Position numbers and translations under genes: made by a program. This document shows positions 18,906 to 64,000 of a stretch of 64,000 nucleotides of DNA, piece after piece. Position 1 is the first letter of the stretch. Every line of letters begins with the position of its first letter. This stretch comes from a virus (Duplodnaviria > Caudoviricetes), in the IMG/VR virus record IMGVR_UViG_3300020048_000002; one strand, written 5' to 3'. The notes beneath the pieces were generated by a model. The model saw nothing but the letters and a program-made list of their open reading frames with translations, searched no databases and was not told the origin of the DNA.

Positions 18906-18976
18906 CTGGGGCGCTAGGATTCGAACCTAGATAGCAAGAGTCAGAATCTTGCGTCCTGCCGTTAGACGACGCCCCA
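18906..18976 (-). tRNA. tRNA-Gln(CTG)
   Basis: TGGGGCG...CAAGA-TT-CTG-AC-TCTTG...CTAGGTTCGAATCCTAG-CGCCCCAG cloverleaf; CCA is not encoded. Confidence 0.92.
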
Positions 18977-21187: not shown

Positions 21188-21808
21188 ATGCAAACCTTCC
21201 CCGACGACGTAAACAGACTGCTCCGCACAGCGTCGGCCAAGAGCCGTACGGCCCATAGGACCTTTGAGTGCCGAGCCTTCAAGTCTGCTGAGTGGAACGA
21301 GTGGACCGAGGAATGGGCGACCCGTATCTACGGGTTCCTCGCAGAGGCGCTCGGACCGATGGGGAAAGAGCCCCTACCCACCATCCTGCCCATGTCGCAA
21401 GGGCATCACATGGCGTGGGCCACGGCGAGCTTTGAGCCCGACTCGGGTCAGATTCGACTCTCGGACTGCATCGAGGGGATGCCCGGTCAAACCCTCGAAA
21501 AGCTGACTCACGAGATGACTCACGCGAGTCTGGCTCAGTTTCCAGAGGGAGACAGTTTCTACGAGGAGGGCTTTGTGGACTATTCCGTCTGGGTCATGTC
21601 GCACGCACCCGTTTGGGGCGAGCACCGAGAAGCCATGATTCAAGCGGCAGCCTACAACATCGCCCAACGTCGAGAGCGTGCCCTGAAGCAGTTGTCCGAC
21701 TGGGATGTGAAAAGGTGGGCCGGGGGCCTGTATGCTAACATGGCCCATGGACCGTTCATCATCGCCCGTCTACGGATGCGCAAGGCCGAAGGCAACCCAG
21801 TGTGGTGA
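21188..21808 (+). CDS. zincin-like metallopeptidase
   Basis: LTHEMTHASL followed by EEGFVDY. Confidence 0.7.
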   Translation: MQTFPDDVNRLLRTASAKSRTAHRTFECRAFKSAEWNEWTEEWATRIYGFLAEALGPMGKEPLPTILPMSQGHHMAWATASFEPDSGQIRLSDCIEGMPGQTLEKLTHEMTHASLAQFPEGDSFYEEGFVDYSVWVMSHAPVWGEHREAMIQAAAYNIAQRRERALKQLSDWDVKRWAGGLYANMAHGPFIIARLRMRKAEGNPVW

Positions 21809-23739: not shown

Positions 23740-23753
23740 GCTTACCTCCCCCC

Positions 23754-23783
23754 TAGTACGACTGAGACAGGCTCAAAATCAAC
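23754..23783 (-). promoter_or_regulatory. conserved promoter, copy 3
   Basis: GTTGATTTTGAGCCTGTCTCAGTCGTACTA upstream of the sigma-like gene. Confidence 0.7.
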
Positions 23784-24005
23784 CAAGCCTGTTCTTTTGT
23801 CCGTGGTTGCCGCCACAAACTAGGGAACACACGTCTACCAAAAGGCCCTAAACAAAGCAACAAAATGCCGGAACATACCCAAGACTTTACTTGAAGGATG
23901 CTTCGGACCGGTGTAAGACCTCATTGTGAAAACGGTTGCCGCCGTTCTCGCGTTCCTCCCCGCGATGCCTCCGTGCCCTCACGGAGGCATCGCCCTTTCA
24001 GCCCC

Positions 24006-39158: not shown

Positions 39159-39171
39159 TTTTTCTCCGGAC

Positions 39172-39201
39172 GTTGATTTGGAAGGGTCGAGAGTCGTACT
39201 A
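39172..39201 (+). promoter_or_regulatory. conserved promoter, copy 4
   Basis: GTTGATTTGGAAGGGTCGAGAGTCGTACTA. Confidence 0.68.
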
Positions 39202-39218
39202 GGAGGGAGGAATCCCCC

Positions 39219-60725: not shown

Positions 60726-60814
60726 GTCTTATCTCCTAGAGGGCAAAAGTCCCCTCTCTATCAAAAAGGGATAAGAAGAATCGCAAGCCCTTGGACGAGA
60801 ATCGGGCAACAATG

Positions 60815-60845
60815 AAAAAGCCCGCTCCCATGTAGGGGCGGGCTC
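60815..60845 (-). terminator. intrinsic terminator
   Basis: AGCCCGCCCC...GGAGCGGGCT-TTTT on the minus strand. Confidence 0.75.
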
Positions 60846-60863
60846 AATCGGTACCTCGGTTAC

Positions 60864-61139
60864 TTAGACGGCTGAAGTGGCCTCTTGCTTAGCACGCTCT
60901 GCGAGAGCCTTGTCCTTCACGTCCTTGCGCCAGATCTTGAAGAGGCCAATGACCTTGTTCTGCTTCCGGCCTTTGGGGACTGGCTCAATCTCGACGGTCG
61001 GATTGCCGTGCTGGTCCTGGCCGAATGCTACGATTTTGCCGACGTGGTTCTTGTACTTCCCGTACAAAACTAGGTCGCCCACGTTCATGTACGCTGCTTG
61101 GAGAAAGCGTGCGGCGACTCGAAGGCTACTCGGCGGCAT
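60864..61139 (-). CDS. small SH3/KOW-like protein with RVAARF tag
   Basis: MPPSSLRVAARFLQAAYMNVGDLVLYGKYKN. Confidence 0.7.
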   Translation of the reverse strand: MPPSSLRVAARFLQAAYMNVGDLVLYGKYKNHVGKIVAFGQDQHGNPTVEIEPVPKGRKQNKVIGLFKIWRKDVKDKALAERAKQEATSAV

Positions 61140-61204
61140 AGGCGTACTAGGGGAAATCGAAAAGTAGATTTTTTGTTGACCTCACTCCTGGCTTCGGGTA
61201 CTAG

Positions 61205-61372
61205 GAAGGGGAGACGGCAAGAGGAGAGTGGCCCGTAGCAGGGCCGGGGATCCATGGGCACCTCGACGGGGGTACCCCCTCGGTAGCCTCAAAGGTGTGG
61301 CTCCTCGGGACTGATCACCCCCCGTCTCCTTCGCCCTCGGCGGCTTATGGGCCTCCGGGGGCGCAGTCTTTT
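61205..61372 (+). ncRNA. putative structured ncRNA 1
   Basis: 5' GAAGGGGAGACGG pairs with CCGTCTCCTTC; inner GAGGAG/CTCCTC and GGCCC/GGGCC stems; upstream TTGACC...GTACTA; downstream hairpin plus T tract. Confidence 0.5.
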
Positions 61373-61377
61373 GTGGG

Positions 61378-62049
61378 TTACATCAACCCCGACTGCTGGC
61401 GGACGGCTTCGCCCCAAGGTGGGGGGGCGTGGGGCTCAAAGGTCGTGTCCGTGAGATCTGCGAAGTCCGGGTAGTCGCTGGTTCGAGTGACGAGAGCGAC
61501 CTCGTAGAGCCATCGCCGGGTGCGGTTCATCATCCGATGACCCAAGTGCGAGACGATCCATCCGTACTCGAACCCAGGCTCAACCCCCGGATTCAACCGA
61601 ACCCAAGTGCCCACGGGGAGCTGAGGCTTCTCTTGCTCGGCTGGCGGTAGCTCCTGCTCTACCCAAGTCGAGATGAGAGCGGGGACGTGCGTAAACCCGC
61701 GTTCCTTCGAGACGTTGATCCGATGGATCCCGTCCTCCACCTCTAGTCGGCCTCTGACTTTGGTTAGCCGAACAGGAGGGAGAGGGTGACCTTGGTCAAA
61801 CGCCTCTTGGAGCTTGTCGGCTCGACCCGGATTCCAGACCGAGGGGATTTGAATCGCCCGCAAAGGGACCACCTCGAACGTCATGTCGTAGTAGCCGCCG
61901 TGGGCAGCCACAGACTCAGCACGGATGTCCGGATCGTTCGTGCGGGCTAGCTGCTTTCGGACAAAGCTCTGATCGACGGGGTAGTGATTCCGCGAAGCCA
62001 CTCGGTTCGGCCTCACGGGCGTTCGCCGGTCGTAGCTGTAGCGATCCAT
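61378..62049 (-). CDS. ParB/Srx-like domain protein with YSYDRR and RVASR tags
   Basis: LPPVRL...VEDGIHRINVS...THVPA. Confidence 0.72.
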   Translation of the reverse strand: MDRYSYDRRTPVRPNRVASRNHYPVDQSFVRKQLARTNDPDIRAESVAAHGGYYDMTFEVVPLRAIQIPSVWNPGRADKLQEAFDQGHPLPPVRLTKVRGRLEVEDGIHRINVSKERGFTHVPALISTWVEQELPPAEQEKPQLPVGTWVRLNPGVEPGFEYGWIVSHLGHRMMNRTRRWLYEVALVTRTSDYPDFADLTDTTFEPHAPPPWGEAVRQQSGLM

Positions 62050-62113
62050 GCCTAGTGAACCCGAAAGGTAGATTTTTGTTGCCCCTTGGCTCACCGTTTT
62101 GTAGGGTCGGATC

Positions 62114-62448
62114 AAACGGGACAAGCCCCGCCCGCAAGGTGGTAAGCGCCGGACCTCCTCGATGGAGGTTGTGCGGTAGAATGGTACACCCGCCGTCCCA
62201 CCGTCAGGGGTGGGCGAGGCCGAGCCTGAACTCTTCGGCTAGTACCCTCTGGTTCCCTCGCCGGATTAGCGTGCCTAGACGCAGGCGAGGGGGCGACCCC
62301 ATGAGGCCCTCGACATCGAGACGAGGGCCACTAAGCCGTCACCTTCGGTTCTCCCGGTCGGGCCGTAGGGACGTAATATCGAACCGGGTCCAGGCCCGAC
62401 TCCCCCCTGCCTTCGTGCAGGACCAAGGAAGTCGGGCCGACGCTTTTT
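62114..62448 (+). ncRNA. putative structured ncRNA 2 (about 330 nt)
   Basis: TTGCCC-17-TAGGGT promoter, at least 7 hairpins, a closing stem, and a terminal hairpin plus TTTTT. Confidence 0.55.
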
Positions 62449-64000
62449 AAGCCTGATTTGAACCCATGCGCCCGTAGCTATAACGGACAGATTCCACGGG
62501 GCTTGGACGACGGATTTGGGAAGCAACTCGAACGTCACCCGGCATCATCGTGTCCAGCCACCAACGAACCCTCTCGTGAAGCGCCTTGGGTCCGTAGGCG
62601 ACAAGCAACCCCAGAGCCTCACAGAAGGCTTCTTCGGAGTTCTTTGCGGCGTACCCCGTGATGGGCGTTTTGGGGACACGAATCGTCCGAACTCCCTTGT
62701 CGTAAAGGGCTTGGAAGTCCTCTTTCGTCTGCTTGTCCTTGTACTGGGAATCCTGAGTCAGTGTCTCGACTTGGAGGCCCATGATGGGGTCGTCCATGTG
62801 CTTCGACATCTCGAACGCCCATTCATTTCCGGGCCACTTTGCAAGCAGCTCGGCTAAGTCGAGATCTCCGAAGTCCCCTCGGATCGTGTCTGACCAGAAG
62901 GACTGAGCTTCCCCACTTAGAGACGTCCGGTAGAGGTGGTGCCCCATCTCATGAGCAAGGACATGGGCAACCCACTTGAAACCCTTCCCCATTACAGAGG
63001 AAGCCCAGAACTTGACAAGGCCCTCAGCGTACTCGCCGCCCTTGTCTAGCGCCCCCTCAAAGTCCACGATGATCGGCACCTGCTTTTTCAGCAGGATGGG
63101 GGCAACCTGAGAGGCTCGTTGACGGTAGAGCTTGAGCCCCGCCTTCAGCATCTCCAATGCTTCGGCGCTTTCGTACCCCGTGTCGTAGCCGAGCAAGATA
63201 ACCTTGAAGCCCTCTAGCTCCGTCTGATACCGCTCAGGGACTCGCACCAAGGGACCCGGAGCGGACTCACTCTTGTACTTCTGGTACCATTCGATGACGT
63301 CCTTCATCGCTGTCCAGAAGTCACGCGCCTTTCGTTGGACCCGAGCCTTCCACTTGGGGGCTTCCTTTTGGTAGTCCTGTAGGATTCTGGCTTCCGAGCG
63401 GTACTCGTCAGGGTACCCTGCGGGCACACTCAACTCGATGTTGAAACTCCAAGCCGGGCTTCGGAGCTTACTGTTGATCCACTTCGCCGAGTCGGCGCTA
63501 AGATCCCGGTTGTTCTTCAGCTCCTTGTTCAGGAACCGGTCGAACATCAAGTAATCGAAGTTCTTTCGGTAGGTGGCGAACCCTCGCCGAAACTTGTCGA
63601 GATCGTCGTACGTGCGAACTCGGTCGACGTTCTTGAGGAGCGTCAGAAAGTCTTTCCGCAAGCCCTCGACCCAGTCTAGGTCCAGGACCTTCGTCTCCGC
63701 CGTCCGATCGGAAGCCGTCCGCACCCCGGGGAGCACCTTCTGGAACATGTACCGGACGACCTCGGGGGTACGTCCAGGGCCATCGACGACGTAGAACGAA
63801 AAGACCTCGGCAAACAACTCCTCAGCGTTCTTCGTGCTGTAGGCGCTTACCGGGTGCAGGAACACCTTGAGCGAAGCCCTGTTCTCGATCAACGTGTCCA
63901 AGCCGGGCTTCGAGCCCTTCTTTGGTGCCCCTGTTATCTTGTCGAAGTTCTCTAAGTCGGGGAGCTTGGAGGCGATGATCTCCAGCCACATGAGCTTGTC
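62447..64000 (-). CDS. zincin metallopeptidase-domain protein (partial, starts beyond the right edge)
   Basis: LAHEMGHH...TGYAAKNSEEAFCEA, plus a second SAYSTKNAEELFAEVF; frame is open to the window end. Confidence 0.7.
   Translation of the reverse strand, partial: DKLMWLEIIASKLPDLENFDKITGAPKKGSKPGLDTLIENRASLKVFLHPVSAYSTKNAEELFAEVFSFYVVDGPGRTPEVVRYMFQKVLPGVRTASDRTAETKVLDLDWVEGLRKDFLTLLKNVDRVRTYDDLDKFRRGFATYRKNFDYLMFDRFLNKELKNNRDLSADSAKWINSKLRSPAWSFNIELSVPAGYPDEYRSEARILQDYQKEAPKWKARVQRKARDFWTAMKDVIEWYQKYKSESAPGPLVRVPERYQTELEGFKVILLGYDTGYESAEALEMLKAGLKLYRQRASQVAPILLKKQVPIIVDFEGALDKGGEYAEGLVKFWASSVMGKGFKWVAHVLAHEMGHHLYRTSLSGEAQSFWSDTIRGDFGDLDLAELLAKWPGNEWAFEMSKHMDDPIMGLQVETLTQDSQYKDKQTKEDFQALYDKGVRTIRVPKTPITGYAAKNSEEAFCEALGLLVAYGPKALHERVRWWLDTMMPGDVRVASQIRRPSPVESVRYSYGRMGSNQA

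Follow-up and report, generated by a model that had tools for sequence, protein, structure and literature searches.

A candidate non-coding RNA of about 335 nt in a GC-rich intergenic spacer of a huge freshwater phage

Introduction

Does the long, GC-rich gap between two minus-strand genes of a huge freshwater phage give rise to an RNA of its own? The phage is known from metagenomes alone, and the window analysed here is a stretch of 64,000 nt of its genome of roughly 311 kb. It occurs in lakes, and contigs of its DNA stem from JGI 3300036770, ENA ERZ27262919 and the runs SRR22077880, SRR22077886, SRR22077900 and SRR22077906. Long GC-rich intergenic regions are the profile by which structured RNAs are found in the GC-IGR approach (PMC8632094), and the gap in question, gapB, fits that profile: it is long, the third-longest of the 15 gaps in the window, and it has the highest GC content among them (63.5%, against 58% for the window as a whole). 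The body of the putative RNA reaches 65.5% GC. A first-pass annotation, made from the letters alone, had described the region as a large, densely structured non-coding RNA with its own promoter and terminator, antisense to the flanking genes. We followed up this description by folding, by comparison of strains and relatives, and by searches of protein and RNA collections.

Results

The genes on either side of gapB

GapB separates the genes of a 223-aa and an 834-aa protein (Table 1). In the family of the 223-aa protein the residues D-G-I-H-R are invariant, and one member passes the Pfam threshold for ParB_N; the copy in the window itself matched no Pfam model. More than 180 proteins of huge phages, with an invariant HEMGH, make up the family of the 834-aa protein; in P0002 this motif lies in the C-terminal half. 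In the closest relatives with gene maps, a CN_hydrolase gene is followed by two adjoining genes of 414-419 aa and 399-412 aa, as against the one 834-aa gene here, which looks like a fusion of these two middle genes. In other relatives, the C-terminal half is fused to topoisomerase IB or lies beside it.

Some strains carry an extra 128-aa gene of unassigned family between a 91-aa and a 379-aa gene (L085:3181-3755, and L086), in place of window positions 60787-60885. This strain-level indel brings its own terminators, each a hairpin followed by a run of U. They point along transcription, from which it follows that the phage uses such terminators elsewhere.

Table 1 Features in and around gapB, in window coordinates.
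Feature	Position	Strand	Description and basis
Non-coding spacer (gapB)	62050-62446		Between two minus-strand genes; 397 nt; from the ORF list
Downstream neighbour (gene direction), 223-aa protein	61378-62049	-	DGIHR motif, ParB/Srx N-terminal-domain type; without Shine-Dalgarno sequence
Upstream neighbour (gene direction), 834-aa protein P0002	62447-64000 and beyond	-	C-terminal 514 codons inside the window; HEMGH motif
Shared upstream motif CGAAAGGTAGATTTTTGTTGCCC	62062-62084	+	23 nt; AT-rich tract and -35 box
Promoter-like pair TTGCCC-17 nt-TAGGGT	62079-62107	+	From sequence and strain alignment
Predicted RNA body	62113-62448	+	About 335 nt, predicted start to end of U-run; placed from promoter and terminator positions
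Hairpin H1, GACCUCC/GGAGGUU	62152-62170	+	Pair probability at least 0.74; consensus fold
Three-way junction	62177-62251	+	Closing helix GGTAC/GTACC (62183-62187/62242-62246) with H2 and H3
Hairpin H2, CCCACC/GGTGGG	62197-62214	+	Inside the three-way junction
Hairpin H3, GCCGAG/TTCGGC	62219-62239	+	Inside the three-way junction; extendable to 62218-62240
Long hairpin H4, CCCTCGCC/GGCGAGGG (62255-62291)	62252-62294	+	11 bp and inner 4 bp; pair probability at least 0.90
Hairpin H5, GGCCCTCG/CGAGGGCC, also given as GGCCCUCG/CGAGGGCC	62305-62329	+	Pair probability 0.98
Hairpin H6	62337-62373	+	Sequesters GUCGGGCC(G) at 62357-62365; from pair probabilities and repeat families D7 and I18
Intrinsic terminator	62388-62448	+	Branched GC-rich hairpin (62388-62441), then GC, then U5 (62444-62448)
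Sibling unit in the next gap (gapA)	61155-61372	+	Shared motif, TTGACC-17 nt-TACTAG(G), body of about 160 nt, hairpin and U4

GapB encodes neither a protein nor a known RNA

One frame is open across the entire gap, at 62055-62450 on the plus strand. It counts 131 codons, or 89 from an internal ATG at 62181, and its product would be rich in arginine, proline and serine. The GC content by codon position is 0.65/0.66/0.59 in gapB, against about 0.74/0.40/0.60 in the flanking genes, and thus lacks a three-base periodicity. Changes between strains in this frame are mostly non-synonymous. An exhaustive search of 1.84 billion representative proteins yielded no real homologue of the spanning ORF; its sole match, P0133, is a eukaryote-like protein with 17 tandem repeats that match 22 residues, which we rejected as a repeat artefact. 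The ORF matched nothing in Pfam or PHROGs. A tblastn search of gapB with 5152 ORFs from the loci of relatives, aimed at pseudogene remnants, returned noise only. Lacking periodicity, homologues and traces of the relatives' proteins, gapB is non-coding, and the initial remark that it holds no convincing ORF is borne out.

Rfam 15, which includes models for tmRNA, RNase P, group I and group II introns, 6S, ROOL, GOLLD, OLE and riboswitches, found, at gathering thresholds, a tRNA at 18906-18976 and nothing else in the whole window. With E-values up to 10, the region 61900-62600 gave a single match, to Giardia RNase MRP; its 12.5 bits, where the gathering threshold is 60, are noise. ARAGORN detected no tRNA or tmRNA in the candidate region. 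The Rfam scan suggested in the first-pass annotation therefore agrees with that annotation, which did not recognise the element as a tmRNA, an RNase P RNA or a group I intron.

A string of hairpins ends in a strand-specific terminator

Each hairpin originally listed was recovered in its place, by folding or by a repeat finder (Table 1). The most robust helices are H1, H4, H5 and the terminal hairpin. In windows chosen post hoc, the terminator hairpin has a folding energy of -31.9 kcal/mol (z -3.8 against shuffles), H4 of -23.7 kcal/mol (z -3.2) and H5 of -15.2 kcal/mol (z -4.1); the domain of the three-way junction alone reaches a z of only -1.2. The two strands of the proposed closing stem, CGGGACAAGCC at 62117-62127 and GGTTCTCCCG at 62347-62356, are present in the sequence, but the stem does not appear in the minimum-energy fold and is one of several near-equal folds. 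Imposing it (62117-62121/62352-62356) costs only 0.4 kcal/mol.

At the 3' end, GGCCCGACT and AGTCGGGCC (62393-62401/62430-62438) are followed by T5 at 62444-62448, as first read. The U-run overlaps the stop codon of the convergent 834-aa gene. On the minus strand the terminator has no U-run, and gapB contains no minus-strand terminator. The alternative partner suggested for the terminal hairpin was found too, a second GTCGGGCC(G) at 62357-62365. This element is a 9-nt direct repeat of the 3' arm of the terminator and could pair with its 5' arm: GTCGGGCCG occurs at 62357 and again at 62431, both copies being complementary to 62393-62400, so that an alternative terminator/antiterminator pairing is possible. 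Forcing the alternative pairing costs about 9 kcal/mol.

Folding is strong against shuffles and ordinary for the genome

The whole RNA (341 nt), compared with dinucleotide shuffles, has a z of -1.96 on the plus strand and -2.37 on the minus strand. With pairs limited to a span of 50 nt, the values are -3.0 and -2.7, respectively, a level matched by 1 of 200 shuffles. Folding on the minus strand is at least equal to that on the plus strand.

Windows tiled over the 64 kb provide the background of this genome, with a mean z of -1.24 to -1.34 and a standard deviation of 1.4-1.6. Between 30 and 34% of these windows reach the global z of gapB, and its local z stands at about the 10th percentile. Comparison with shuffled controls, named at the outset as a possible refutation, thus gives a double answer: gapB folds better than its shuffles, but since ordinary sequence here has a mean z of about -1.3, its value is unremarkable. 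Such ordinary, mostly coding windows of 340 nt average about -1.3 on both strands, and some fall below -5 (for instance at 21701, minus strand). Shuffle-based fold tests therefore overstate the support for RNA candidates in this genome. The absolute local folding energy of gapB, -142.8, lies below that of all 138 background windows, largely because gapB is the most GC-rich gap. The fold ensemble is diffuse, the minimum-energy structure having a frequency of 0.0001. Of the large, densely structured RNA initially described, the stable hairpins remain; the ensemble is diffuse as a whole, its z is ordinary for the genome, and no defined conserved architecture emerges.

A promoter-like module is shared with a sibling unit

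The sequence contains TTGCCC (62079-62084) and TAGGGT (62102-62107), 17 nt apart, just as initially noted. In all five other strain contigs the -35 box is TTGACC (62082 C>A). The -10 box is weak, with three of six positions matching the consensus, and a scan for consensus sigma-70 promoters did not call the pair.

The -35 box forms the end of a longer motif, conserved in all strain contigs, that has only two copies in the 64 kb; the other lies at 61155-61182. Two minus-strand genes, starting at 62049 and 61139, also have the motif 13-40 nt upstream of their start codons. Of 15 minus-strand genes inspected, these two alone show no Shine-Dalgarno-like sequence; in each, CTAG precedes the ATG by a few bases.

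The claim of a promoter and terminator of its own hence divides. The terminator, a hairpin with U5, is strand-specific; the plus-strand promoter is one that we infer from the geometry of the site, and the motif may belong to the minus-strand genes instead. The promoter-like site and the terminator both lie on the plus strand and the flanking genes on the minus strand, which upholds the antisense orientation first proposed.

The second copy of the motif opens a sibling unit in gapA. Its TTGACC-17 nt-TACTAGG resembles a recurrent promoter of this phage, TTGATT-18 nt-TACTAGG; the minus strand of gapB gave no match to that promoter. The recurrent promoter takes the form GTTGATTT-N-GTCGTACTAGG-(A/G)GGGAGG at 39171-39210 (plus strand) and 23753-23792 (minus strand), and the -10-like box TACTAGG is found in the sibling gap at 61144 and 61198. 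The sibling unit shows no excess folding (z -0.15). Its body (61210-61372) is 100% identical in five strain contigs, and the promoter spacer and -10 box of gapA are replaced in strains by unrelated sequence of equal length. The distance from the motif to the plus-strand body is kept, whereas a 30-nt indel shifts its distance to the minus-strand ATG; the indel adjoins that ATG. Beyond the shared motif, we found no paralogy between gapB and gapA.

Strain variation leans towards the plus strand

Three near-identical haplotypes represent this one phage species: the window, which equals an ENA contig, L006, and L085-L088. The second haplotype differs in the RNA core by five substitutions and a 2-nt deletion in a loop. 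Three substitutions fall into stems, at 62224 (G>A), 62240 (T>C) and 62245 (C>T), where they change G.U to A-U, G.U to G-C and G-C to G.U. All three preserve pairing on the plus strand; on the minus strand, each would mean an A.C mismatch. They fix H3 in the register given in the first-pass annotation. The three are one-sided changes, and the number of double, compensatory ones across the three haplotypes is zero. On the plus strand, and there only, the minimum-energy topology of the three-way junction is shared by all three haplotypes; minus-strand folds differ. A strand bias of this kind has a chance of about 1 in 8, and five transitions placed at random would disrupt nothing in about 18% of cases. 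The variation between strains favours the plus strand in a manner that is suggestive only.

GapB diverges by 2.8% in the second haplotype, against about 1% for the flanking genes. L006 alone had given 1.0% against 1.6%, an apparent excess of conservation over the neighbours that the second haplotype reversed.

The candidate is an orphan of one species

BLAST, a covariance model and exact words, applied to about 50 related huge-phage records and three public collections, revealed no homologues. A blastn search of the phage collection returned nothing similar, and BLAST against five related records no homologue. The covariance model R1 (62176-62330, 45 bp) scored at most 16 bits in 46 related IMG/VR records. 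Above 16 bits it retrieved from the relatives' loci only self-matches: scores of 18.6 and 16.7 bits came from the opposite strand of the candidate's own terminator/H5-H6 region, in L085 and in the window. Exact 18-25-mers, sought in viral, metagenome and genome collections, met only chance matches in AT-rich bacteria, and the promoter motif stayed at chance level in 50 related records and two collections. Elsewhere in the window, the RNA has no complementary sequence beyond chance level.

Relatives of the ParB-like gene (at most 49% identity) have other neighbours and no large gap, and those of the 834-aa gene have flanks without similarity. In syntenic relatives, CN_hydrolase, a 414-aa gene, a gene of about 400 aa and a ClpX-like gene follow each other with gaps of 3-28 nt, none of them like gapB; synteny with the relatives ends at gapB. 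The L007 locus was considered as an 'empty site' and rejected, the 394-aa gene beside its ParB-like homologue not being homologous to the 834-aa gene.

By all these searches, the candidate RNA is an orphan confined to one phage species. No homologues with covarying pairs came out of them, and selection on the RNA is therefore not demonstrable.

Discussion

We propose, with about even confidence, that gapB produces a lineage-specific, independently transcribed regulatory non-coding RNA of about 335 nt from the plus strand. Transcription would start some 6-8 nt past TAGGGT and proceed head-on to the minus-strand genes. It would be driven by the -35 box (TTGACC in most strains) and the AT-rich tract upstream, a module common to the otherwise unrelated unit of gapA. 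It would stop at the hairpin and U5, right where the convergent gene has its stop codon; a terminator in this position would make the RNA a discrete one and keep antisense transcription out of the 834-aa gene. The product would be a string of stable hairpins with a three-way junction, and not one defined global architecture.

Since gapB has no minus-strand terminator, any read-through on the minus strand would yield a transcript whose intercistronic part this RNA complements perfectly. The RNA is not cis-antisense to a gene in the strict sense: only its U-run touches the stop codon at 62447-62449, and the body faces the intergenic spacer. An overlap with an opposite-strand transcript would arise only if a read-through mRNA exists. 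The role is most likely regulatory, we infer; the RNA may uncouple the ParB-like gene from the upstream gene, or tune or time the one against the other, by duplex cleavage and/or head-on interference. A trans-acting role is equally open, through the few single-stranded stretches of the RNA, such as the AU-rich one at 62373-62387.

The main rival, which we regard as possible but distinctly less probable, places the meaning of gapB on the minus strand, as an intercistronic spacer of the late-gene operon. The hairpin would then end or stabilise the mRNA of the 834-aa gene, the AT-rich motif would be the promoter or leader of the next gene (for example an A/U-rich translational enhancer), and any plus-strand RNA would be incidental. 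Read in the direction of the genes, both gaps indeed share a layout of stop codon, hairpin, spacer, motif and start codon, and the two genes behind the motif are those that stand out among the 15 inspected by having no Shine-Dalgarno-like sequence. The slightly better folding of the minus strand, and a conservation of gapB that does not exceed that of the flanking genes, fit as well. Yet a minus-strand terminator would need its U-run on the other side, and the recurrent promoter of the phage is not matched on that strand. A leader at a fixed distance fits poorly with the 30-nt indel that other strains show between motif and ATG, and the G.U pairs at the three variable stem positions work on the plus strand only. 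The upkeep of a 300-nt GC-rich spacer would also be left unexplained. If the orientation is instead that of the proposed RNA, gapB might still be a decayed promoter-ORF-terminator cassette, its ORF degenerated into non-functional DNA at a mosaic junction. The end of synteny at gapB, the cassette indels by which strains differ nearby and the frame open across the gap suit such an origin, as does the sibling promoter, which has a ribosome-binding-like AAGGGGAG/GAGGAG and no usable ORF. We think it improbable: neither residual protein similarity nor codon periodicity is left, and the sibling body, identical in five strain contigs though its promoter spacer has been replaced, suggests that the bodies are kept.

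Three further readings carry little weight. A riboswitch-like conditional terminator would have 62117-62356 sense a ligand or protein, the closing stem freeing GUCGGGCC (62357) for the 5' arm of the terminator, with read-through antisense to the 834-aa gene. The 9-nt repeat lies 74 nt upstream of the terminator 3' arm that it duplicates and is held in H6, the 5' strand of H6 overlaps the closing stem, and the fold with this stem lies only 0.4 kcal/mol above the minimum. Repeats of 9 nt are, however, not rare by chance in a stretch of 400 nt, and the antiterminator has its cost of about 9 kcal/mol. There is no plus-strand gene downstream, where the sequence is antisense to a conserved minus-strand gene, and neither a riboswitch family in Rfam nor homologues to define an aptamer were found. 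We judge this mechanism very unlikely, and hardly less so its fuller form, in which 62117-62356 would be the sensor of a species-specific riboswitch-like controller that gates antisense transcription into the fused metalloprotease-like gene on a host or phage signal. An equally slim chance goes to a site acting at the level of DNA, where the hairpin-rich gaps or the shared motif around the ParB/Srx-like gene would bind its protein in a centromere- or packaging-like manner. The motif brackets that gene and occurs nowhere else in the 64 kb, and the family carries the DGIHR motif of the ParB N-terminal type; but the motif is no palindrome, the hairpin arms each have a different sequence, and CCCTCG, considered as a repeated DNA site, is not enriched. 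Moreover, relatives of the ParB-like gene are without such gaps, and the domain type is commoner in nucleases than in partition proteins. Least credible of all is a small, very basic plus-strand protein of 89-131 aa, read from ATG 62181 or GTG 62055 to TAA 62450. Its open frame and a GGAGG 12 nt before ATG 62181 are set against the low complexity of an arginine/proline/serine-rich product, the missing codon periodicity, a sole database match that is a repeat artefact, mostly non-synonymous strain changes, and a terminator hairpin that would fall inside the ORF.

With the plus-strand RNA as the preferred reading, the candidate appears fairly ordinary; judging from the promoter-like site and the strong terminator, a non-coding RNA of about 335 bases is the probable product of gapB. 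If the RNA is made, it is one more free-standing non-coding RNA in the small set from huge phages. Taken with the sibling unit, it would point to a promoter module that can be reused to drive RNAs in the direction opposite to the late-gene block, and that could serve as simple insulation or for the timing of neighbouring genes. Its confinement to one species means that it tells little about general phage biology and that comparative validation is impossible.

Among known systems, ROOL, GOLLD and OLE (PMC12286853) are also large non-coding RNAs of undefined function, often in a phage or prophage context. They measure 500-800 nt, are widely conserved with strong covariation and form defined multimers, in contrast to the candidate, which is smaller, has a diffuse ensemble and is without homologues or a match to an Rfam model. 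With riboswitch and attenuator platforms it shares a duplicated 3' arm that can pair alternatively with the 5' arm of the terminator, and a hairpin that sequesters this arm; unlike them, it is neither followed by a gene on its own strand nor conserved, and no aptamer can be recognised in it. In T4-type phages, Arbiol and colleagues reportedly described in 2010 promoter-stem-loop cassettes (PeSL) that flank small ORFs and point along with them. These too are repeated modules of promoter and stem-loop at sites of gene-content variation, whereas the module seen here encloses non-coding sequence and points against its neighbours.

The closest parallel comes from virulent and jumbo Pseudomonas phages, whose discrete RNAs, intergenic or antisense, have starts and terminators of their own (PMC10914365). 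These include a 141-nt intergenic transcript of phiKZ, ncRNA1 and ncRNA2 of PAK_P3, and twenty antisense RNAs with a defined start (PMC10914365). Like the candidate, they are phage-encoded and non-coding, have a start and an intrinsic terminator, in some cases run antisense to gene flow, are conserved in close relatives only, and have no defined function. They are detected transcripts, mostly of 70-210 nt and many of them derived from UTRs, while the candidate is a prediction of about 335 nt, more GC-rich and set as its own unit between two co-directional genes. By analogy, the candidate would work most like these intergenic and antisense RNAs of Pseudomonas phages.
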